Shown: positions 12,800 to 64,000 of the stretch, one piece after another
Position numbering within the stretch: position 1 is the stretch's first letter
Layout of the letters: each line of letters starts with the position of its first letter
NCBI GenBank assembly: GCA_039588915.1
Contig: JBDGYV010000006.1
Location: forward strand, 13,116 to 77,115
Length of the DNA stretch: 64,000 nucleotides
From: Gemmatimonadota bacterium
GTDB taxonomy: Bacteria > Gemmatimonadota > Gemmatimonadetes > JACCXV01 > JAHWKZ01
Reading direction: 5' to 3'
Made by a program: the position numbers and the translations under genes
The notes under the pieces: generated by a model
Told to the model about the DNA's origin: nothing
Database searches by the model: none
What the model saw: the letters and a program-made list of their open reading frames with translations, nothing else

Positions 12800-13738
12800 A
12801 TGCTTCAATACACCCTGCGCCGCATCGTCCACACGATCCCAGTCCTGCTCGGGGTCCTCGTCGTGACCTTCGTGCTGCTCTACATCGCGCCCGGAGATCC
12901 CGTACTGGCGATGGTCGGCGAGCGGTTCGACCAGGCGACGATCGATCGACTCCGGGCCGAGCTCCATCTCGATGAACCGGTCTGGAGTCAGTTCTACCAT
13001 TATGTCGCCGGTCTGATCCACGGCGACTGGGGCACGTCGTACATCACCGGACAACCGGTGCTCGACGGAATCATGGACCACTTCCCCAAGACGCTCTACC
13101 TGGCGTCGGTGGCTATGGTATTCGCCATCCTCTCCGGGGTGCTGATCGGCGTCGTGTCGGCAGTCAAACAGTCGACCTGGCTCGACGGTTTGGGGATGAC
13201 CGTCGCGCTGGTCGGAATCTCGTTCCCTGTTTACTGGGTGGGGCTAATCCTAATCTTGGTGGTCAGCGTCTCGTGGCGCTTGCTGCCGCCGTCCGGGTTT
13301 GGAGGCGGCGCGCTGCCATATCTCATTCTCCCGGCGCTCACGCTAGGGATGCGATCGACCGCCTATATCGCCCGGTTGACGCGCTCGTCGATGCTTGAGG
13401 TGATTCGCCTCGACTACATACGCACCGCTCGCGCCAAGGGTCTAGGCGAAACGCGGGTGATCGGGAAGCACGCGCTCAAGGCGGCATTGATCCCTGTCGT
13501 CACGGCGATCGGGCTCGATTTTGGCGCGTACCTGTCGGGTTCGGTTCTCACCGAATCAATCTTCGCCTGGCCCGGCATCGGCCGTTTCGCGCTCAACGCC
13601 ATCCTCAAGCGCGATCTGCCGGTCATTCAGGGCACGGTGCTCTTCCTGGCGATCGTGTTTGTGCTCGTCAACCTCGCCGTCGACTTGTTGTACGGATACC
13701 TGGACCCGAGAGTGCGATATGGGCGTGACGCGAGATAA
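12800..13738 (+). CDS. ABC transporter permease, DppB/OppB-like
   Basis: Typical N-terminus (LRRIVHTIPVLLGVLVVTFVLLYIAPGDP) and the BPD_transp_1 EAA-like region. Confidence 0.85.
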   Translation: MLQYTLRRIVHTIPVLLGVLVVTFVLLYIAPGDPVLAMVGERFDQATIDRLRAELHLDEPVWSQFYHYVAGLIHGDWGTSYITGQPVLDGIMDHFPKTLYLASVAMVFAILSGVLIGVVSAVKQSTWLDGLGMTVALVGISFPVYWVGLILILVVSVSWRLLPPSGFGGGALPYLILPALTLGMRSTAYIARLTRSSMLEVIRLDYIRTARAKGLGETRVIGKHALKAALIPVVTAIGLDFGAYLSGSVLTESIFAWPGIGRFALNAILKRDLPVIQGTVLFLAIVFVLVNLAVDLLYGYLDPRVRYGRDAR

Positions 13739-14594: not shown

Positions 14595-14677
14595 CGCGGG
14601 AAGTGGTTGCCAGGCTTAATATTCAGGGTCCCACGGCGTCCAATTTGTGGCAGGGAAACCCGGAACGGGACGACCCC

Positions 14678-15217
14678 ATGGGCGACGACCAGCTGGTCAA
14701 GCAGGCGCAGGCCGGCGACGCGCAGGCGTTTGGCCAGCTCGTCGACCGTCACCAGCCCGGGATCTTCGGAACGCTGGTCAAGATGACCAGTGACCGGGAT
14801 CTGGCGATGGACCTGACCCAGGACGCGTTCATTCGAGCCTGGGAGCAGCTCGGGACTTTCGAACGCCGATCGGCGTTCTCGACCTGGCTGTATCGAATCG
14901 CGGTCCGGCTGGCGTACGATGCGATGCGGAGTTGCCATCGGCGCGACCATCGCGAGCTCGACGAGCGAATCGCCGACCCCGACCTGGGACCCGACCGACA
15001 GGCCGAGGTCGCCGCGCTGAGCGAGGATTTGAGGCAGCGGATCGAATCGCTGCCTGAGATGCAGCGTGCGATCGTGATCTTGAGGGTATATGACGATCTA
15101 CCGTACAAGGAGATCGCCAACATTCTCAAGACCACGGAGAACAGCGCTCGGGTTTCGTTCCACCACGCGGTGACCCGATTGCGCGACGGATACATGAAGG
15201 AGGCACCACCGCCATGA
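14678..15217 (+). CDS. ECF (sigma-70 family) RNA polymerase sigma factor
   Basis: Region 2 (FGQLVDRHQPGIFGTLVKMTSDRDLAMDLTQDAFIRAWE) and region 4 helix-turn-helix (DLPYKEIANILKTTENSARVSFHHAVTRLR). The true ATG at 14678 lies inside the longer tracked ORF. Confidence 0.85.
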   Translation: MGDDQLVKQAQAGDAQAFGQLVDRHQPGIFGTLVKMTSDRDLAMDLTQDAFIRAWEQLGTFERRSAFSTWLYRIAVRLAYDAMRSCHRRDHRELDERIADPDLGPDRQAEVAALSEDLRQRIESLPEMQRAIVILRVYDDLPYKEIANILKTTENSARVSFHHAVTRLRDGYMKEAPPP

Positions 15218-15777
15218 AACACGTGACCGACCAACAACTGATCGGTTGGCTCGACGAGCCGGAAACCGCCAACACGCCGGCCGCGATTACCACACATCTC
15301 GAGGCGTGCGATCTGTGCGCTCGGCGGCTGGCCGAATTCCAGCGGGTGTTTGAGGCGCTGCGTGTCCAACGGGAGGCACCCTCGGCCGATGAGTTTGCGG
15401 CTCAGCGTGACCGTATCGTAGACGCCATCGCTCCAGAGATGCGGCGCCCAACGGTGCGCTCGCTTCAACGCGGTGGTTGGTGGATTCCGGTTGCAGCCGC
15501 GGCCGCTGTCATCGGTGTGTTCGTGCTGAAGCCCGACGAGCCGGCGGACGCTCCAACCCGGCTCGCCGTTATCGATCAAGCCGATCGAGCGGCTGAAGAC
15601 GCGATCGACGCACTGGAGGGCGAGACCGCATTGGAGGCGATGCTGGCCGTGCTCGACAGCGGGCCCGAGACCCGGGCGTACGAAGCGGCATCGCTGGAAG
15701 AAGAGTTCGCGTTGCTGACCGAGGAAGATCAGGCAGCGATCTTGAACGAACTGTCAACGACGAGTTTCGACCTATGA
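15214..15777 (+). CDS. Zinc-finger (ZAS-type) anti-sigma factor with a single TM helix
   Basis: ATGA overlap with the sigma-factor stop. HLEACDLCARRL (HxxxCxxC) motif and a TM segment WWIPVAAAAAVIGVFVL. Confidence 0.7.
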   Translation: MKHVTDQQLIGWLDEPETANTPAAITTHLEACDLCARRLAEFQRVFEALRVQREAPSADEFAAQRDRIVDAIAPEMRRPTVRSLQRGGWWIPVAAAAAVIGVFVLKPDEPADAPTRLAVIDQADRAAEDAIDALEGETALEAMLAVLDSGPETRAYEAASLEEEFALLTEEDQAAILNELSTTSFDL

Positions 15778-16352
15778 ACCGGACGTTTTACACACTGCTG
15801 ATCGTCATCGCGCTCGGGTTTTCGGGCGGCCCGTCGATCGCTCAGGAAGTCGACACGCTCTCGCGGGCGCGGGTCGAGCAGCTCGAGCAGTTGCGTATCA
15901 GACGGCTGCAGAACGCGCTCGAGCTGAACGACCGCGAAGCCCGCGAGCTGGAAGCGGTTATGCGCGACTTTCGACGCCAAGACCGGGACACCGCGTTCAA
16001 ACGCAGAGACGCTACGCAGCGACTACGCCAAGTGCTTGGGCAGGAGCCCGTCAATGACAACGAAGTGAGCCGGGCACTCGACGAAGTCGAGGCTCAGAGA
16101 CGTGCGACCGAACGTCTACGAGAGCAACAGCGACAGCGGTTGGGACAGCTGCTGACACCTCAGCAGCGCGCCAAGTTCATGCTCTTCAACCGACAGTTCG
16201 ACGCCCGGCTGCGACAGCTGATGGCCGAGCGACGAAGTGATCGTCAGCAGGATCAACGTCGAGACCAGCGCGGCGTGCGTCAGCCACGCGGCTCGAATGC
16301 GCTACAAAACCAGCCCGACCGACCACCCAATCCGCAGCGTCCCAGGGACTAG
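15774..16352 (+). CDS. Periplasmic LTXXQ-motif protein (CpxP/Spy-like)
   Basis: ATGA overlap with the anti-sigma stop. Signal peptide, coiled-coil Arg/Gln-rich sequence, and LLTPQQRAKF (LTXXQ) motif. Confidence 0.55.
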   Translation: MNRTFYTLLIVIALGFSGGPSIAQEVDTLSRARVEQLEQLRIRRLQNALELNDREARELEAVMRDFRRQDRDTAFKRRDATQRLRQVLGQEPVNDNEVSRALDEVEAQRRATERLREQQRQRLGQLLTPQQRAKFMLFNRQFDARLRQLMAERRSDRQQDQRRDQRGVRQPRGSNALQNQPDRPPNPQRPRD

Positions 16353-16354
16353 TC

Positions 16355-16798
16355 TTACTGCTCCGGAATCGTTCCCCAGTGCTCAGAAAACGACCGCATC
16401 CTCGCCCGTAACTCGGGCTCGATCTGGCGTGGCCTGCCAGTCTCGCGATCGATCATCACTTGCACCGTCGTACCACGCGCGACCAGCCGTTCGCTCTGCT
16501 CGTCGAACAGCTCATAGTCAAGCACAAACGAGCTGGCCCCGATTCTCGACAGACGCGCTTCGACACGCACGGTTTCGCGAAGCACCGCCGCCGACACAAA
16601 ATCGCACTCCGCCCGCGCGACCACAAAGTCGAGCACGTCGTACGAGTAATCGTGATGTAGCTCTTGCCAGTACGCGGTTCTGGCTACTTCGAGATAGGTG
16701 AAGTAAACCGAGTTGTTGACGTGACCCATCGGGTCGAGATCCCGGAAGCGTACCGGGATCTTGACATTGAAGTGGCGCGTGGAGGAGTGGCGGCTCAT
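16355..16798 (-). CDS. Acyl-CoA thioesterase, 4HBT/YbgC family
   Basis: Hotdog-fold signature FRDLDPMGHVNNSVYFTYLEVAR. Confidence 0.75.
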   Translation of the reverse strand: MSRHSSTRHFNVKIPVRFRDLDPMGHVNNSVYFTYLEVARTAYWQELHHDYSYDVLDFVVARAECDFVSAAVLRETVRVEARLSRIGASSFVLDYELFDEQSERLVARGTTVQVMIDRETGRPRQIEPELRARMRSFSEHWGTIPEQ

Positions 16799-16858
16799 GG
16801 GAGCGGCAAGCTAATCCTTCGTTCGAAACGACGCCGACCGATTTGGTTGCAACGATCC

Positions 16859-18190
16859 GTGCCGCTGGCTACTGTTCGCGCAGACGTGCTTAGCTCAAAA
16901 ACCGTCGCCGGAATTCTGCTCGGCATCGTCCTCGTCATCACACCGGGGATGGTCCACGCACAGGCCTTTCTTCAATGGGATCTCGCCGCTCGGCCGGCGG
17001 CGCTGGGCGGAGCCGCTACCGCCATGCCCGACGATCCAAGCACCGTCTTCTACAACCCAGCCGGCATGGCCCATCTGAGCGGCACGTTCGTCCAGGCCGG
17101 CGCAACGCTCGGGGCTGACGCGAGCCGGTTTCGAGGCTTTGGTACCAAAGAGTTTGATCGCGAGTCGAGCCCCACGATCGGCGGCTCGCTTTACATCTCT
17201 CACACCGTCGCCGAAAAGCTGACCGGTGGGATCGCGATCAACACGCCGTGGACGTTAGCGGTCGAGTGGGAGGACCCGAGCGATTTCGTCGGGCGGTTCC
17301 AATCCTTCGACGCCGACCTGCGCTCGATCAACTTCAATCCGGTGGTCGCTGCCGGCCCGTACAACGGCTGGAGTTTCGCGGTCGGAGTCGATGTGTTGAA
17401 CGTGAGGTTTGACATTCATCGCTTCGAGCAAGACCCTGAGCTCAGTGCCTTGGCTGGGCTGGGCCCCGTGGACTTGGCACGCTCCAGAATCGACACCGAC
17501 GGGACCGGCATCGGTTGGAATGGCGCAGCCATGTTCGTACCGTCGGAGCGGCTTGTTTTCGGTGCCCAAGTGCGCAGTGAAATCGAGATCGATCTCAACG
17601 GCGTCGCAGACTTTGTTGGCATTGCGCCCGCCGAACTGCGGGCTGTGCCATTCGGAGAAGGCACCGTCGGCGACTTGCTCGATGAGCGGTTCGTCTCCCA
17701 GAACACGCGCATCCCGTTCACGTTCCCGTCCACGGCGGTCGGCGGCGTCGCCCTTCAACCGATCCCCGAGCTGTGGCTCCGGGCTGACTTGCAATGGGTC
17801 AACTGGAGCGCTGTCGATGCGATCCAGCTCGAGTTCGAAGATCCGACTCTCGATGGCCAGATCGGATTGGACTACGACGACGCATGGTCGGTGCGCGTCG
17901 GCGCCGAAGTCGAGTACCTACCTGAGACTACCCTACGTCTCGGCTATTCGTGGGAGGATACACCAGCAAACGCTATTTCCGTCAATCCCATCGTCCCCGA
18001 TGCGACGCGCAACAGTTATTCAGTCGGACTCGGCTTGCGTGGGTCCGTATTCGATCTCGATTTTGCCTATCGATTCTCGCTGCTCGAGGATCGCGAAGGG
18101 GTCGCCTTTCCCGAAAACGACTCCACGATCGATGGTGTTTACGAAACGGTAGAGCACTGGTTTGGAGCCGCGATTACACGTCGCTTGTAA
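16859..18190 (+). CDS. Outer-membrane transport protein, FadL/OMPP1/TodX family
   Basis: Signal peptide (…GILLGIVLVITPGMVHA-QA) and an N-terminal block with NPAGMAHL typical of FadL-family beta-barrels. The start is GTG around 16859-16890; the tracker's longer N-terminus overlaps the thioesterase gene. Confidence 0.7.
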   Translation: MPLATVRADVLSSKTVAGILLGIVLVITPGMVHAQAFLQWDLAARPAALGGAATAMPDDPSTVFYNPAGMAHLSGTFVQAGATLGADASRFRGFGTKEFDRESSPTIGGSLYISHTVAEKLTGGIAINTPWTLAVEWEDPSDFVGRFQSFDADLRSINFNPVVAAGPYNGWSFAVGVDVLNVRFDIHRFEQDPELSALAGLGPVDLARSRIDTDGTGIGWNGAAMFVPSERLVFGAQVRSEIEIDLNGVADFVGIAPAELRAVPFGEGTVGDLLDERFVSQNTRIPFTFPSTAVGGVALQPIPELWLRADLQWVNWSAVDAIQLEFEDPTLDGQIGLDYDDAWSVRVGAEVEYLPETTLRLGYSWEDTPANAISVNPIVPDATRNSYSVGLGLRGSVFDLDFAYRFSLLEDREGVAFPENDSTIDGVYETVEHWFGAAITRRL

Positions 18191-18243
18191 CGCCTCCGTT
18201 GGTTGCTGCAAACACCCCACCAGGCTATAATCAGTTGTTACCA

Positions 18244-18693
18244 ATGAGACTATCCAACGAACAGCGCGATAGCTTCATCGCCCAATGCCGGGCGGCTGGG
18301 CTATCGGTAACCCACCAGCGGTTGGCGATCTTTGAGGCGGTATTGGCGAACTGCAATCGCCACCCTTCGGCCGAGATCATTTACCAGACCGTCCGTGAGC
18401 GTTACCCCACGATCTCGTTCAATACGATCTACAAGAACCTCGAGATTTTCGAAGAGCTAGGAATCGTAGTAAAGGTCAACCCGCTTTACAACGAAGCGCG
18501 TTACGATGTCGACGTCCGACCCCACCATCATCTGATCTGCCGTCAGTGCAAGAAGATCGTTGACGTGCACGATGAGAAGCTGGGCCGCGTTCCACCACCG
18601 ATCGACGCCGAGAACGGCTTCAAGGTGGAGAATTGGACGGTCCAGTTCACTGGCCTGTGCGCCGACTGCCAGCCAGCGTCAGCAGTCGTTTGA
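18244..18693 (+). CDS. Fur-family transcriptional regulator (Fur/Zur/PerR-like)
   Basis: Winged-helix N-terminus, HHHLIC motif, and two CxxC pairs (CRQC, CADC) for structural zinc. Confidence 0.85.
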   Translation: MRLSNEQRDSFIAQCRAAGLSVTHQRLAIFEAVLANCNRHPSAEIIYQTVRERYPTISFNTIYKNLEIFEELGIVVKVNPLYNEARYDVDVRPHHHLICRQCKKIVDVHDEKLGRVPPPIDAENGFKVENWTVQFTGLCADCQPASAVV

Positions 18694-18711
18694 TCGGCGC
18701 TGACAACCAAC

Positions 18712-18752
18712 GTGGTTGCTAGCTGAGAAACCACGTCGGAACAAAACCCGGC
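18712..18752 (+). terminator. Imperfect hairpin (11-bp stem, 1 mismatch) just downstream of the fur-family gene; candidate terminator or operator
   Basis: ccaacgtggtt-N11-aaccacgtcgg. No U-tract follows, so it may be a regulatory site rather than an intrinsic terminator. Confidence 0.3.
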
Positions 18753-18817
18753 TGCACCCCGTCTAATCGGGGTAGGATTGTGTTTGCCAGCCTCGACCAT
18801 ACCGCTTGGAGGTTGAG

Positions 18818-19399
18818 ATGTCGTTGAAGCTCGCTCGGTTTGGAGTCCCACCCTTGGTCATTGCCGTTGGGACGGTCGCAGCGTTTGTCGGCAATCGCGA
18901 CGAGTCCGTGCGTGAAGCCACAGTGGCGCCGATGACTGCGCCAACCGCGGCTAACGACGAGCCGGTCGATGGTTTTGCCCTCGGTCCGGCTGACGCGGCA
19001 CCCGAGCTAGTCGTCCTCGATGACCTAGCAGCCGAGGAGGCGAAAACAACCCCACGCCGAGTCGCGGCACCCCAAGGTCAGACCGTTCCGGTCGAAACCG
19101 TCGCGTCCCCGACCGCAACGGTAGTTACTAGCGAGGCCTTGTCGATCGATGCCCCATCGCTGGCTTTGGAACAGCCCAACCCGCGGCGCTCCATTCGTGT
19201 CGATCCGCGGCGCGATACTGCGCGCGGTGGCATCTCGACCGTCGCCGACACCGGTGGACGGCGAGGCGGTTTTCGTGTCGGCATCTCGGTTGGCGGGGAC
19301 TGTCGCCCCAGCGGCGTAGCCGGGACGACGCTCGTCTTCGATCGCGGCGCCGGACTGAGCGGTGTCGGCCTCGGTGGACGGCGCGGCGTCCGGTTCTAG
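18818..19399 (+). CDS. Secreted/membrane-anchored hypothetical protein, paralog A (Ala/Pro/Thr-rich linker, Gly-rich C-terminus)
   Basis: GGAGG Shine-Dalgarno 5 nt upstream of the ATG at 18818. Hydrophobic N-terminus. Shares the motif AAPE[LV]VVL.D.A.E…R.V..P…TV with the downstream gene. Confidence 0.45.
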   Translation: MSLKLARFGVPPLVIAVGTVAAFVGNRDESVREATVAPMTAPTAANDEPVDGFALGPADAAPELVVLDDLAAEEAKTTPRRVAAPQGQTVPVETVASPTATVVTSEALSIDAPSLALEQPNPRRSIRVDPRRDTARGGISTVADTGGRRGGFRVGISVGGDCRPSGVAGTTLVFDRGAGLSGVGLGGRRGVRF

Positions 19400-19513
19400 C
19401 CAAACCCGTCGTCGCCAAACCGACTCGTTTTACAGTCGGGAACCCCACATGGCATCAGGCGTACAAGACCCGATGTCCGTAGCCAGCCGTAGTCCCCATC
19501 GGAGGTTGTACAG

Positions 19514-20212
19514 ATGACCCGTCCGCGTACGCTGATTCCGGCCGCGGTATTGATCGCCGGCGTCCTCGCGTGTCAAGGCGAGCCCGCGTCACGCGACACC
19601 ACCCCACGCGTGGTGTTCAAGTCCTCGCAGTCCACAGCCCTGGCGAACACGGATCAGGGCATGCCGATGGGCCCCAACGGTGCGGCGCCCGAAGTCGTAC
19701 TGCTCGGTGACCCAGCGCCGGAAACGCGCGCCGAGAAGCGTACCGTCAAGCAGCCCAAGCCAGGCCCGACGGTGATCTACCACACGGTGTACATCGAAGC
19801 ACCAGCTGAGGCTACAACCGAGCCTGAGGAATCGGGCCAGTCGATCCCCAAGATTGTCGACGAGCCGATCGCAGAGCCGGCAGCCACGCAGGTCGTCCCC
19901 GATCCGGAACCAGCCGACACGCCTGACGTCGCTGACAGCCCGAATACACCGGATCCGGTCGCGACCGCACCTCCGACGGTGACCCCGACCACGTTCCCAA
20001 GCGGCGGCGCGAACCGCGCCGAGGACGCCATCGTGGGCGCCGCTGTTGGCGCTTCGATCGGTGCAATTCTCGGTGGACGGGGTGGCGCAATGGCGGGTGG
20101 TATTGGTGGCGCGATCGGTGGAGCCACCAGTGGACGTGGCGGTGGGATTTTGGGGGGCATTCTCGCTGCCAGCTCGCGCGGGCGGTTGCCTCGCCGCGGC
20201 GGCGGTTGCTGA
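19514..20212 (+). CDS. Lipoprotein, paralog B, with a C-terminal glycine-zipper (SlyB/17-kDa antigen-like) segment
   Basis: Lipobox LIAGVLAC and the same GGAGGTTG…ATG ribosome-binding context as paralog A. C-terminal GAAVGASIGAILGG…GGIGGAIGG glycine zipper. Confidence 0.55.
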   Translation: MTRPRTLIPAAVLIAGVLACQGEPASRDTTPRVVFKSSQSTALANTDQGMPMGPNGAAPEVVLLGDPAPETRAEKRTVKQPKPGPTVIYHTVYIEAPAEATTEPEESGQSIPKIVDEPIAEPAATQVVPDPEPADTPDVADSPNTPDPVATAPPTVTPTTFPSGGANRAEDAIVGAAVGASIGAILGGRGGAMAGGIGGAIGGATSGRGGGILGGILAASSRGRLPRRGGGC

Positions 20213-45557: not shown

Positions 45558-45604
45558 TTCCGCCGGGGAACAAACCGGTTCTCTGCCCCGTATAACCGGT
45601 ACCT

Positions 45605-46384
45605 ATGAAACGATTCTGCAGCAACCTCGTCGTGCTTGCGCTGACGCTCGGTTCAACCGCCGCTCATGCGCAGACCAACGAAGCCGACACCGCCACCGCA
45701 CTCGCTTTTGGCCCGGGTGAGGAGCTTACCTACTCGGTCGCGTACGGGGTCGTACCCGCCGGCTCGTGGTGGCTCCGCGTCGAGGAGTTGGGCGAATTCG
45801 AAGGGCGCCCCGCGTACCACTTCGTGTCCGAGGTCGAGAGCAATCAGGGCGTGTCCGTCATCTACGAGATCGAGCAATCCGAGGAAGCTTGGTTCGACGC
45901 CGCCGAGCTCTACTCTTTGAAGTACACCCGTCAATCGATCGAAAATGACAAAGCCCGTGATCGCGTTTACCGATTCGACCAGGAGCAGCACCTTCGCATC
46001 AACGGCAAGGGAGAAACAAAACCGGCAAGTCCGCGGGCAGTAGATCAACTGTCGATTCTGTACTTCATCCGACTGCTGCCGTTTGAACCCGGCGCCAAGT
46101 TCACGCTTCGGAATCTGGCGGACCCAGAAGACAACCCACTGACCATTCAGGTCCTAAAGAAGGAACGAGTCAAGGTGCCAGTTGGCACATTCGAGACTTA
46201 CGTCCTGAAACTCGATTTCAAGACCAACCATGGAGTCTTCAAGAAAGGCGGCGAGAACCTGCTTTGGGTCACCGCTGACGATCGACACGTGCCGGTCAAA
46301 CTGTCGAGCAAGATCGGCCTCGGAAAGTTTCGCGCCGAATTGGTCGGGTTTTCCGCCGGAAAGACGATCGTCTCGGTCAATTGA
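45605..46384 (+). CDS. DUF3108 domain protein, secreted
   Basis: Signal peptide and DUF3108-like N-terminal motif (GEELTYSVAYGVVPAG). Confidence 0.55.
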   Translation: MKRFCSNLVVLALTLGSTAAHAQTNEADTATALAFGPGEELTYSVAYGVVPAGSWWLRVEELGEFEGRPAYHFVSEVESNQGVSVIYEIEQSEEAWFDAAELYSLKYTRQSIENDKARDRVYRFDQEQHLRINGKGETKPASPRAVDQLSILYFIRLLPFEPGAKFTLRNLADPEDNPLTIQVLKKERVKVPVGTFETYVLKLDFKTNHGVFKKGGENLLWVTADDRHVPVKLSSKIGLGKFRAELVGFSAGKTIVSVN

Positions 46385-61663: not shown

Positions 61664-62587
61664 CTAAGGCTCGGCGGGACGCTCGCTGGTTTCGGGAAGG
61701 GTCAGCCGGATCGGCACACTGAGCACAACCGTCAACGGCGTGCCGCTGGGCACGATCACCTCACGATCAGGCGTTGGAGCAACGAGCGTGGCACCGGCCA
61801 CGCCGCCTACGATCGTACCGACGATGACCGATCGGGATCCGCCGCCCAGAACCTGCCCCAGCAGAGCTCCCGTGAGCGCGCCACTGGCGGCACCTGCCAC
61901 CCGATCGCCACCGGGTGCGTCGTCGAGATTCGCTTCGAGCCCGTCAGCGTCGGGATCCGCCAACTCGGCCTTGAACGGCCGCCGCTCGCCGGACGGCAGG
62001 ATCAACGACCGGAATTCGAGCTCGACCATCGCCGGTTGCTCGTCATCGCCATCTTCGGCCCTCACGACCCGGCTGACTCGGCCCTCGACGAGCGTATGGG
62101 CCGGTAGCACGACGCTCTCACCTAGCTGAACGTCGTCAATCAGGCGGGCCGCGAACCGATCACCAACAAGTGTCGTCGCGGTATGAAGTGGCGTTCTCAA
62201 CTCCAGCTCGAGGTACGTTCCCGCTGGCAGAGTGGGATCGACTGTCGCCGGCTCAGTCGTTTCTTCGATCGTGGTGGCTACTGTGTCGGGCTCTCCCGCT
62301 TGAGTGCCATGTGGCACCTCGGAGATATCGACGGGCTCCGGCTCTCGGTCCTCGGGTTCACCGGAGGGAGCGGACCGTTCGATGATCACGACCTCTTCGA
62401 CCCATGTAGGGGGCATCGGCGATACAGCTGGACCGGTGTCCGCCAGTACAGAGATCGCGGCGGTCGAGTCGGCCTCGACAACGATCGTGCGGCCGGGCTC
62501 GTGTTGACACCCGAGCACGACGGCAACTAGCGCTGCGACGACGCCGGGCTGGCCATGGACCACTCGCTTCAGGAGCTTACGGCGCAT
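61664..62587 (-). CDS. Lipoprotein of unknown function with a C-terminal glycine-zipper segment
   Basis: Internal start MRRKLLKRVV…ALVAVVLGC (lipobox). Acidic Pro/Thr/Glu-rich middle region. Gly-zipper AGAASGALTGALLGQVLGGG…GTIVGGVAGA. Confidence 0.5.
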   Translation of the reverse strand: MRRKLLKRVVHGQPGVVAALVAVVLGCQHEPGRTIVVEADSTAAISVLADTGPAVSPMPPTWVEEVVIIERSAPSGEPEDREPEPVDISEVPHGTQAGEPDTVATTIEETTEPATVDPTLPAGTYLELELRTPLHTATTLVGDRFAARLIDDVQLGESVVLPAHTLVEGRVSRVVRAEDGDDEQPAMVELEFRSLILPSGERRPFKAELADPDADGLEANLDDAPGGDRVAGAASGALTGALLGQVLGGGSRSVIVGTIVGGVAGATLVAPTPDREVIVPSGTPLTVVLSVPIRLTLPETSERPAEP

Positions 62588-64000
62588 GCATCCTCTTCGT
62601 TCGCTCATTCCCTACGTCCGACCATACCGGAGATCCCTGATCTGGGGGGCGATTTGTATAGCCCTCAGCGCTGGGTTTGGTTCCCTGAGCCCAATCGTGG
62701 TCAAGTTTGCGATCGATGCGCTTCGCGCCGAGGCCACGTGGACCGCGATTTCTGTGTACGCCGGAGCGATCGTCGTTATCGCGTCGGTTCAAGGCGTCTT
62801 TCGGTACGCTCAACGACACTTGGTCTACGGCGCTTCGCGAAAGATCGAAACTGATCTCCGTGATGACTTATACGCCAACTTGCTAAGACAATCGCCGGCG
62901 TTTTTCGACCGATTGCCAACCGGCGACGTTTTGAGTCGCCTGTCCAATGATCTCGGCTCGGTCCGAATGAGCGTAGGCCCAGGCATTCTATTTGGTGTCA
63001 ACACGGTCGCGACAATCGCGCTGGCGATCGCGTTTATGCTCTGGATCGACCCGTGGCTGACGCTGTTGGCGTTGCTGCCGCTGCCGTTCGTTTCGGTGAC
63101 GGTCAAGCTAATGGGCCAGCGGCTCCATCGGCTAAGCCTCGTCAGTCAGACAGCGCTCGCCGAGGTAACGACGACGGTTCAAGAGAATCTGGCCGGCCTC
63201 AGGGTGGTCCGCGCCTACGGCTTGGACGGCAGCGAGCAGAGCCGTTTCCACGCCCGAAGCGAGGACTACGTGTTGGCCAACCTGAGGCTGGCGCGAGTCC
63301 GAGCGGTGTTGGGTCCAGCGCTCGGTTTCCTGCTCGGCCTGAGCCTACTGATCCTGCTCTGGCTAGGGGGTCGTCGCGTTGTGGCCGGACACCTGACGCT
63401 CGGCGACCTGGTGGCGTTCCTGATGTACCTGGGGATGATCAGTTGGCCTTTGATCGCGTTCGGCTGGATCGCCAACCTCTTTCAGCGCGCGACCGCGGCT
63501 ATGCGCCGGCTCAACGCAGTTCTGCTCGCCATTCCGACCATTGACGACGCTTACTCTGACCCGGCAGCCAGAATCACCACTGGCAGCATCGCTCTCGATG
63601 ATGTGGTTTTCCGCTATCATCCAGACAGGCCCCCGGTCTTGAATGGCTTCACACTATCGATACCCGCAGGCACGACAGTGGGGATCACCGGCCCCACCGG
63701 GAGCGGCAAGACCACGCTTCTCAGGCTGATCACCCGGTTGTATGAGCCCCAGACCGGGACGATCGAGATCGACGGCCGCCAAATTCGCGACTACCCGCTC
63801 GATGTGCTGCGGCGAGCGGTGGCGATCGCACAACAGGAACCGCTCCTGTTCAGCGACACGTTGAAGGGAAACCTGGAGTTTGGTAGCGCCGCCGATGGTC
63901 AGCTATCGGTCGACCAGGCGGTGTCGATTAGTGGTCTGGCCGACGAGGTACGCACGTTTCCGGCTGGCTACGATACCGTTGTAGGAGAGCGCGGGATCAC
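62586..64000 (+). CDS. ABC exporter with fused TMD-NBD (MsbA-like), 3' end truncated by the window edge
   Basis: Open frame from the ATG at 62586 to the window end (verified codon by codon; not in the ORF track because it has no stop). N-terminus MHPLRSLIPYVRPYRRSLIWGAICIAL; Walker A GPTGSGKTT; Q-loop. Confidence 0.85.
   Translation, partial: MHPLRSLIPYVRPYRRSLIWGAICIALSAGFGSLSPIVVKFAIDALRAEATWTAISVYAGAIVVIASVQGVFRYAQRHLVYGASRKIETDLRDDLYANLLRQSPAFFDRLPTGDVLSRLSNDLGSVRMSVGPGILFGVNTVATIALAIAFMLWIDPWLTLLALLPLPFVSVTVKLMGQRLHRLSLVSQTALAEVTTTVQENLAGLRVVRAYGLDGSEQSRFHARSEDYVLANLRLARVRAVLGPALGFLLGLSLLILLWLGGRRVVAGHLTLGDLVAFLMYLGMISWPLIAFGWIANLFQRATAAMRRLNAVLLAIPTIDDAYSDPAARITTGSIALDDVVFRYHPDRPPVLNGFTLSIPAGTTVGITGPTGSGKTTLLRLITRLYEPQTGTIEIDGRQIRDYPLDVLRRAVAIAQQEPLLFSDTLKGNLEFGSAADGQLSVDQAVSISGLADEVRTFPAGYDTVVGERGI

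Follow-up and report, generated by a model that had tools for sequence, protein, structure and literature searches.

Glycine-zipper lipoproteins such as SlyB and YfgH have been described as stress-specific stabilisers of the envelope (bioRxiv 10.64898/2025.12.22.696046). Lipoproteins of this kind are increasingly seen as outer-membrane stabilisers dedicated to particular stresses, and a divergent version from a little-studied phylum could reveal which parts of their design are essential. Envelope genes are also found in the regulons of extracytoplasmic function (ECF) sigma factors with an autoregulated sigma/anti-sigma operon, such as sigma-W, sigma-E and CnrH/CnrX. The hallmarks of ECF promoters are AAC in the -35 element, CGT in the -10 element, a spacer of 16+/-1 nt and autoregulation (PMC3426412). 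Among the Fur-family regulators, Fur proteins have Glu where PerR has Asp104, and His37 is missing from Zur (PMC4866751). Here, we describe a locus that can be compared with all of these systems. It lies in a 64-kb stretch of DNA from a Gemmatimonadota bacterium (GCA_039588915.1, contig JBDGYV010000006.1, forward-strand positions 13,116 to 77,115; 62% G+C), which we call the window and whose nearest relatives are Gemmatimonadota metagenome-assembled genomes. The locus consists of a Fur-family gene (18244-18693, 149 residues), gene A (18818-19399, 193 residues) and gene B (19514-20212, 232 residues, a predicted lipoprotein), all on the + strand.

An earlier note on this DNA had taken A and B for a tandem pair of paralogous envelope proteins and had suggested that the adjacent regulator places them under metal- or oxidative-stress control. 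Its gene assignments are sound, since the upstream protein matches Pfam FUR (E = 4.7e-30) and both same-strand genes downstream of it are under purifying selection. With moderate confidence, we suggest instead that the locus is made of three separate transcription units and that A and B belong to an ECF envelope-stress regulon, rather than being a pair controlled by the Fur-family protein. This corrects the appealing inference that the neighbours of a regulator are its targets, and replaces it with a testable proposal, namely two ECF-type promoters. The locus is otherwise ordinary and lineage-restricted. No general principle is changed by it, and its value lies in annotation and in hypothesis generation. 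It does define a small uncharacterised envelope-protein family with a shared N-terminal module and an unusually long zipper in B and in a third protein type, C.

The Fur-family gene, A and B are real genes. Compared with the relative L001, which is 86-88% identical to the window, A has a ratio of nonsynonymous to synonymous substitution (dN/dS) of 0.09, and B one of 0.12. The third-position G+C of gene A is unremarkable, and its first codon position is G+C-rich, which is expected of a protein rich in Ala, Gly, Pro and Val. Gene A starts with ATG, with an alternative TTG start at 18806.

ECF-type motifs upstream of genes A and B

A bipartite motif, GGAAC-N17-CGTCTAA, stands before gene A at 18738-18766, and its counterpart before gene B is GGAAC-N16-CGTACAA at 19439-19466 (both + strand). 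Related loci (numbered L001 onwards) were gathered from a genome scan and from exact look-ups of homologs, and tblastn served to compare them; 11 lineages, including the window, have upstream sequence. The AAC/CGT pair, its spacer and its position are conserved before B in 10 of these, as GGAAC-N16/17-[CG]GTA 39-50 nt before the start codon, although the B proteins themselves are only 40-50% identical. In an alignment of the otherwise diverged B spacers (alignment A3), four blocks remain, which are GGAAC, GCGTA, GCCAGCCG and CGGAGGT. The motif of A is identical in L001 and occurs as variants elsewhere (GGAAC-N17-CGTTTCA in L011, GGAAG-N17-CGTCCAA in L015 and TTAAC-N17-GGTCTAA in L013). Because each gene has this conserved AAC/CGT motif with a 16-17 nt spacer, A and B would each be turned on by an ECF sigma factor upon envelope stress, where both the sigma factor and the trigger are our proposals. 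Type C genes have no ECF-type motif upstream. They directly adjoin B or overlap it, and probably share its transcript.

The nearest candidate for this sigma factor is encoded about 3.5 kb upstream, in an operon on the + strand. It comprises an ECF sigma factor that we call sigma1 (14678-15217; Pfam Sigma70_r2/r4_2/ECF), a putative anti-sigma factor with one transmembrane helix (15214-15777) and a periplasmic LTXXQ/Metal_resist protein (15774-16352), whose Metal_resist match (E = 8.6e-6) is below the cutoff with 26.4 against 29.2 bits. This arrangement resembles the CnrYXH metal-sensing system, a comparison that rests in part on the sub-threshold Metal_resist match. Sigma1 has a related motif of its own, TTAAT-N16-CGTCCAA at 14616-14643, a putative autoregulated promoter, which reads TTAAC-N16-CGTCCAA in L005 and L009. 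In sequence, the locus is like the autoregulated ECF regulons in its AAC/CGT elements, its 16-17 nt spacer, its envelope genes and its nearby sigma/anti-sigma/LTXXQ operon with a related motif. It differs from them in that the -35 element of sigma1 (TTAAC) is not that of the supposed targets (GGAAC).

A second ECF cluster, about 20 kb from A and B in the window, lies on the minus strand at about 40388-37467 and consists of sigma2, an anti-sigma factor and two DUF4097-like genes. The cluster is orthologous to one that follows SufE in L005 and L010, and its anti-sigma factor is homologous to the zf-HC2 anti-sigma factor of L005. We considered sigma2 (about 40388-39885) as the sigma factor of A and B and rejected it, its upstream motif being TTCCAAC-N17-C[GA]TC.

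The unlike motif of sigma2 weighs against our proposal, as does the -35 element of sigma1, although the -10 element of sigma1 resembles that of A (CGTC[CT]AA). Several other observations point the same way. Gene A of L009 and gene B of L013 have no good match to the ECF-type motif. The strict pattern GGAAC-N16/17-CGTM is not enriched across the window (5 found, 4.07 expected), and for this reason the case for promoters is purely one of positional conservation. On the side of the regulator, searches of the whole window that allowed up to 3 mismatches found neither the PerR box TTATAATNATTATAA nor the Fur box TGATAATNATTATCA, but these are the classical boxes, and since the Fur-family operator of this phylum may differ, an unconventional site could be missed. 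At 5952-5966 of L005, and also in L006, an AT-rich 7-1-7 palindrome, GTATTATCTTAATAC, covers the -10 element of B, and no other Fur-box-like element was found at any locus. On the side of the proteins, B of the window has no Pfam match at E<=1 and reaches no glycine-zipper gathering score, and a Foldseek search of its model against the PDB gave 0 matches.

Between the promoter-like motifs and the start codons lies another conserved element, GCCAGCC, at 18786-18792 before A and at 19482-19488 before B (both + strand), 15 and 12 nt before the respective Shine-Dalgarno sequences. Across many lineages it stands 10-18 nt before the Shine-Dalgarno sequence of A and B. Before A it is present in the window, L009, L011 and L015 and is one base off in L001 (GCCAGCt...), and before B it is present in the window, L003, L004, L005, L008 and L010. 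In L013/L014 it takes the form GGCCGCAC before B and C. The element is over-represented in the window, with 30 copies against 11.3 expected, a number that 0 of 100 shuffles reached. We nevertheless reject it as a window-wide signal, as nearly all copies are in coding sequence, which points to compositional enrichment; only those at 18786 and 19482 are in conserved leader positions. The Shine-Dalgarno sequences themselves (GGAGG at 18808-18812 for A and 19501-19505 for B, + strand) explain what had been seen as an identical ribosome-binding context. Both genes do have GGAGGTTG before the start, but this is simply the Shine-Dalgarno GGAGGT, invariant in all B orthologs, and it stands 5 nt from the ATG in A but 8 nt from it in B.

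The GCCAGCC element is not explained by a promoter model. GGAAC, CGTA and GCCAGCC could together belong to a conserved mRNA leader or be the site of another factor. Transcription would then begin at some other place, or reach the genes as read-through from the Fur-family gene. Its recurrence before A, before B and, in altered form, before B and C of L013/L014 would fit such a leader, and so would the failure to match either sigma factor to the motifs and the hairpin after the Fur-family gene, which has no U-tract, so that termination there may be leaky. However, the leaders have no significant RNA structure, as the A-B spacer and the B leaders fold no better than shuffles (z of -0.33 to +0.06). 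Two blocks at a strict spacing of 16-17 nt and at a fixed distance from the start codon are typical of a promoter, and AAC with CGT is the ECF signature (PMC3426412). L008 keeps the blocks despite a different upstream neighbour. We therefore regard a leader without a promoter as quite unlikely and continue to favor ECF-type promoters.

Two further occurrences of the motif stand apart from A and B. A third strict match, GGAACAAACCGGTTCTCTGCCCCGTA (45567-45607), precedes by only about 12 nt the start codon of a gene for a secreted DUF3108 protein (45605-46384), which may be another member of the regulon with a very short leader. GGAAC-N-CGT matches before the FadL-like gene of L003, L005 and L007 were rejected as promoters, since they fall inside the coding sequence of the thioesterase gene and are absent in the window.

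The Fur-family regulator, its transcript and its neighbours

The membership of the upstream protein in the Fur family is clear, with 104.6 bits to Pfam PF01475 FUR (cutoff 23.1) over residues 18-135. Its type is less so. The top NCBIfam model is the PerR equivalog NF052545, but at 117.4 bits the match is under the 180-bit cutoff, and the Fur model gives 95 bits against a cutoff of 220. In an alignment to PerR of B. subtilis (2fe3), all five PerR ligands, H37, D85, H91, H93 and D104, are matched, with His in rHPSAE, Asp in aRYD, His-x-His in pHHHLIC and Asp in KIVD, and the two CxxC motifs of the Cys4 structural zinc site are present. Because of these PerR-type ligands, including Asp at the Asp104 position, we call the regulator PerR-like by ligand pattern, which is not proof that it is a PerR. 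With PerR of B. subtilis it shares the Fur fold, the two CxxC pairs and the complete regulatory site. It differs in its sub-cutoff score and in being about equally near to the solved Fur structure 9ire and to 2fe3. There is also no PerR box in the window.

The regulator is far more conserved than its neighbours, which suggests a strongly constrained and probably global regulator. In most relatives its identity is 82-90% (57% in L011), whereas in those relatives identity falls to about 40-54% for the FadL-like protein and for B, and the dN/dS of the regulator is about 0.05 in the comparison of the window with L003-L013.

A sigma-70-like promoter can be read upstream of the Fur-family gene, with TTGCTG at 18203-18208 and TATAAT at 18226-18231 separated by N17 (+ strand). 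A scan for consensus sigma-70 promoters called no promoter. The TTGCTN-N17/18-TATAAT-like layout is kept before the gene in six other lineages (L003, L004, L005, L009, L010 and L011). Just 12 nt separate the promoter from the start codon, with no Shine-Dalgarno sequence among them, which suggests a housekeeping-type transcript that is leaderless or nearly so. Transcription from this promoter would give a nearly leaderless mRNA that ends at or near a hairpin 3' of the stop codon.

This imperfect hairpin (18707-18739, + strand; inverted repeat I5) had been noticed before, although at 18712-18752, and had been offered as an operator or a terminator. It has 14-nt arms that are 86% complementary and a 5-nt loop, and folds with -14.2 kcal/mol (z = -2.56). 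Its 3' arm runs into the -35 element GGAAC of gene A and is followed by AACAAAACCC. With no T-run after it, it lacks the U-tract of an intrinsic terminator, and a terminator scan did not call it; the four terminator-like matches of that scan are on the wrong strand and inside genes. Nor does an operator fit, as no palindrome is shared with other lineages. L001 has a hairpin with a different loop at the equivalent place, and no such hairpin was found at the more distant loci. It looks like the 3' end structure of the Fur transcript rather than an operator. A weaker stem after gene A is no better than shuffled sequence.

The arrangement of the regulator with the downstream genes is kept in relatives, as the earlier note had asked to be checked. 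In 10 of the 11 lineages, no more than about 1.1 kb separates B from a Fur-family gene upstream of it; these are the window, L001, L003, L004/L007, L005, L009, L010, L011, L013 and L015. An A-type gene lies between the two in six of them (the window, L001, L009, L011, L013 and L015), and in L003, L004/L007 and L010 B directly follows the regulator. In L005 an opposite-strand DUF5996 gene sits between them. L008 is the sole lineage that has B and no adjacent Fur-family gene, and the promoter motif of B is kept there. The recurrent gene order is ECF sigma factor, a protein of roughly 200 residues, LTXXQ protein, thioesterase (minus strand), FadL-like protein, Fur-family regulator, A where present, B, C where present, a small lipoprotein and SufE; its section from the FadL-like gene to B is conserved in 10 of the 11 lineages. 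The sigma/anti-sigma/LTXXQ operon is likewise upstream in L005, L009, L010 and L013. The adjacency of the regulator is most simply an inherited gene order within one phylum.

It is against this background that direct repression of A and B by the Fur/PerR-like protein has to be judged, that is, a metal or peroxide stress pair with the hairpin or a nearby site as operator. The proximity of the regulator to B in nearly all lineages, its complete set of PerR-type ligands (PMC4866751), the SufE or NifU iron-sulfur genes nearby and the palindrome over the -10 element of B in L005/L006 all speak for it. No box was found in the window, however, and inverted repeats of the form 7-N(0-3)-7 upstream of A, B and the regulator gene in 6-11 lineages were lineage-specific, with none positionally conserved. 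A shared Fur/Zur/PerR-like palindrome before A and B had been a prediction of the metal-stress model, and none was found; what is conserved there are the ECF-type blocks, which are not palindromic. The hairpin is common only to the window and its closest relative, L001. B and the same upstream blocks persist without the regulator in L008, an unrelated gene on the opposite strand intervenes in L005, and synteny within one phylum can be plain inheritance. We consider direct repression of A and B unlikely, and favor three transcription units with ECF-type control of A and B.

Envelope proteins A and B and their shared module

That the downstream genes encode envelope proteins with a conserved motif, and that B resembles the glycine-zipper lipoproteins, is borne out by our analysis. 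The 34 homologs of B all derive from metagenomes or from genomes assembled out of them, and in every case where the source names an organism it is Gemmatimonadota. Its signal peptide, MTRPRTLIPAAVLIAGVLAC, ends in the lipobox VLAC, whose C20 is invariant in 33 sequences (alignment A1), and B is thus predicted to be lipidated. An N-terminal module follows with three short beta-strand motifs, RVVF, the block GP..APEVVLL and TVIYHTVYIE; it has no Pfam or NCBIfam match. After the module comes a Pro/Glu-rich spacer that is predicted to be disordered, and then the glycine zipper (residues 168-220, nt 20015-20173, + strand). Gly occurs at every fourth residue from 175 to 215, giving 11 consecutive GxxxG repeats, most of them invariant in the 33 sequences. 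The family consensus of this region is R-x-E-D-A-I-V-G-A-A-I-G-A-G-I-G-A-I-L-G-G-R-D-G-A-I-A-G-G-I-G-G-A-I-G-G-A. The AlphaFold2 model of B from the family alignment, which is of a monomer only, has a mean predicted local distance difference test score (pLDDT) of 59.6. It shows almost no secondary structure from the signal peptide to residue 167, and helices at 168-206 and 208-220 with a pLDDT of about 80.

B had been credited with a textbook glycine-zipper 2TM segment. The lipobox and the glycine periodicity support the likeness, but the missing Pfam match does not, and the relatives of B are similarly placed. Rick_17kDa_Anti (PF05433) is sub-threshold in 18 of 33 (best E 0.011) and Gly-zipper_YMGG (PF13441) in 14 of 33 (best E 8e-4), where for PF13441 even an E of about 3e-4, obtained by the protein at 61664-62608 of the window, scored under the cutoff. 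The NCBIfam matches of B of the window to YiaD/PdsO are weak (E 0.06-0.7). An exhaustive profile search of 1.84 billion representatives recovered 14 clusters at E<=1e-30, a number that rises to 17 at E<=1e-10, and beyond them a tail of about 150 proteins that align only at the zipper positions. A few weak full-length look-alikes with a lipobox, a linker and a YMGG zipper appear, from their sequences, to be Bacteroidota-like. Thus, B resembles glycine-zipper lipoproteins, judging from these profiles, but cannot be shown to belong to any of the curated families.

Compared with SlyB, YfgH, Pcp and the 17-kDa antigen (PF05433, PF13441, PF13488), B has in common the lipobox, the C-terminal GxxxG run that is predicted to be helical, the apparent control by an envelope-stress regulator, the weak Pfam matches of its relatives and the YMGG zippers of its distant look-alikes. 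It differs in several respects. Its zipper is unusually long, with 11 repeats in three segments split by conserved R/D residues, and is preceded by a disordered Pro/Glu tether of roughly 150 residues. Its conserved three-strand module is unmatched in Pfam and NCBIfam, and its family is tiny and, where an organism is named, confined to Gemmatimonadota. B is apparently regulated by an ECF sigma factor, whereas SlyB of Yersinia pestis is described as part of the PhoPQ pathway. By analogy with SlyB and YfgH, the zipper helices of B may lie in or on the membrane and oligomerise, and thereby stabilise the envelope, while the lipid anchor would hold the N-terminus and the disordered tether would span the periplasm.

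Protein A, for which there are 13 homologs, is built differently. It begins with a basic stretch and an 18-residue hydrophobic helix without a lipobox, which we read as a signal anchor that would leave the protein membrane-anchored and exposed to the periplasm. The shared motif (residues 50-75, nt 18965-19042, + strand) is followed by an Ala/Pro/Thr linker and a conserved Gly/Arg-rich C-terminal region. Conserved across the family (alignments A2 and A5) are S-I-R-V-D-P-x-x-D-T-A-x-G-G, D-C-R-P and T-L-V-F-D-R-G, as well as an invariant Cys162 and a C-terminal Phe, an aromatic residue. A has no Pfam or NCBIfam match, and its AlphaFold2 model is uninformative with a pLDDT of 34.

The conserved block that A and B had been said to share is real in both families, and it is the only region over which their profiles align. 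BLASTP aligns the two proteins with 30% identity over 101 columns, 36% of them gaps (E = 2e-4). Their family profiles align by hhalign over 32 columns (94% probability, E = 8.5e-8), and over 26 columns (96% probability, E = 8e-9) when the A alignment is broadened with the divergent members from L011, L013 and L015. The aligned block, [DG]-G-x-x-L-G-P-x-x-x-A-P-E-[LVI]-V-[VIL]-L-x-D, is near-invariant in both families and is not low-complexity. In B it occupies residues 47-72 (nt 19652-19729, + strand), where the family has RVVF before it and P-G-P-x-V-I-Y-x-T-V-Y-[IV]-E after it. The significant alignment is confined to this motif of 26-32 residues and does not extend over most of both proteins outside the low-complexity parts. 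Because only these columns align and the conserved features elsewhere differ, we conclude that A and B are not full-length paralogs; the claim that they are clear paralogs would hold only in a narrow sense, for the motif.

The same N-terminal module also heads type C, a third architecture with a lipobox, a TrbI-like domain and a glycine zipper, which directly follows B in L005, L006 and L010. For this reason, the shared element appears to be a short mobile module in a small group of envelope proteins. It does not by itself point to a simple tandem duplication, for which nothing beyond the motif was found. A search for homologs with the alignment of the N-terminal module only (alignment A4) gave a single match and was uninformative. 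Strand addition through the APE[VIL]V[IV]L motif might join A, B and C to one another or to a partner that they have in common.

True tandem copies do exist, since a second B-like copy follows B in L013/L014. One may thus ask whether A and B are themselves recent duplicates with redundant functions that diverged only in their low-complexity parts. Their common motif (hhalign E of about 1e-8) and their common layout of N-terminal membrane targeting, Ala/Pro linker and Gly-rich end would agree with this, and so would the A-type protein of L011, which aligns to residues 1-102 of B with 32% identity (E = 2.9e-4). Yet only 26-32 profile columns align, the N-termini are a signal anchor in A and a lipobox in B, and the C-termini are different conserved domains (S-I-R-V-D-P ... 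D-C-R-P ... R-F in A, 11x GxxxG in B). The two families also stay distinct in lineages whose A proteins have no more than about 37-50% identity to A of the window (alignment A5), and therefore any duplication must be ancient. A recent duplication seems very unlikely to us, and a mobile module accounts better for the data.

A wider reading is that A, B and type C form a Gemmatimonadota-specific superfamily, defined by the undescribed module RVV[VF] ... G-x-x-L-G-P-x-x-x-A-P-E-[IVL]-V-[IV]-L ... R-V-I-Y-x-T-[VI]-Y. Such a module might act by strand addition in tethering, sorting or sensing. The proteins would form a regulon dedicated to the neighbouring ECF sigma/anti-sigma/LTXXQ system and be kept beside the PerR-like regulator, together making up one envelope/redox stress island. 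We put this forward as speculation that is probably wrong in this full form.

Surrounding genes

A minus-strand lipoprotein gene at 61664-62608 of the window is related to type C of L005/L010. Its product combines a TrbI-like central region with a zipper of the YMGG type, for which the Pfam match is sub-threshold (E = 3e-4), and lacks a clear copy of the GP..APE motif. Downstream of gene B, a Kdo transferase gene and a NifU-like gene lie on the opposite strand. Upstream of the Fur-family gene are a 4HBT thioesterase gene on the opposite strand (16355-16798) and, on the + strand, a gene for a FadL/TodX-like outer-membrane protein (open reading frame 16664-18190). As listed, this frame begins with TTG at 16664 and overlaps the 5' end of the thioesterase gene. 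Since homology to the relatives starts only at about residue 72-98, the true start of the FadL-like gene is probably near 16850-16950.

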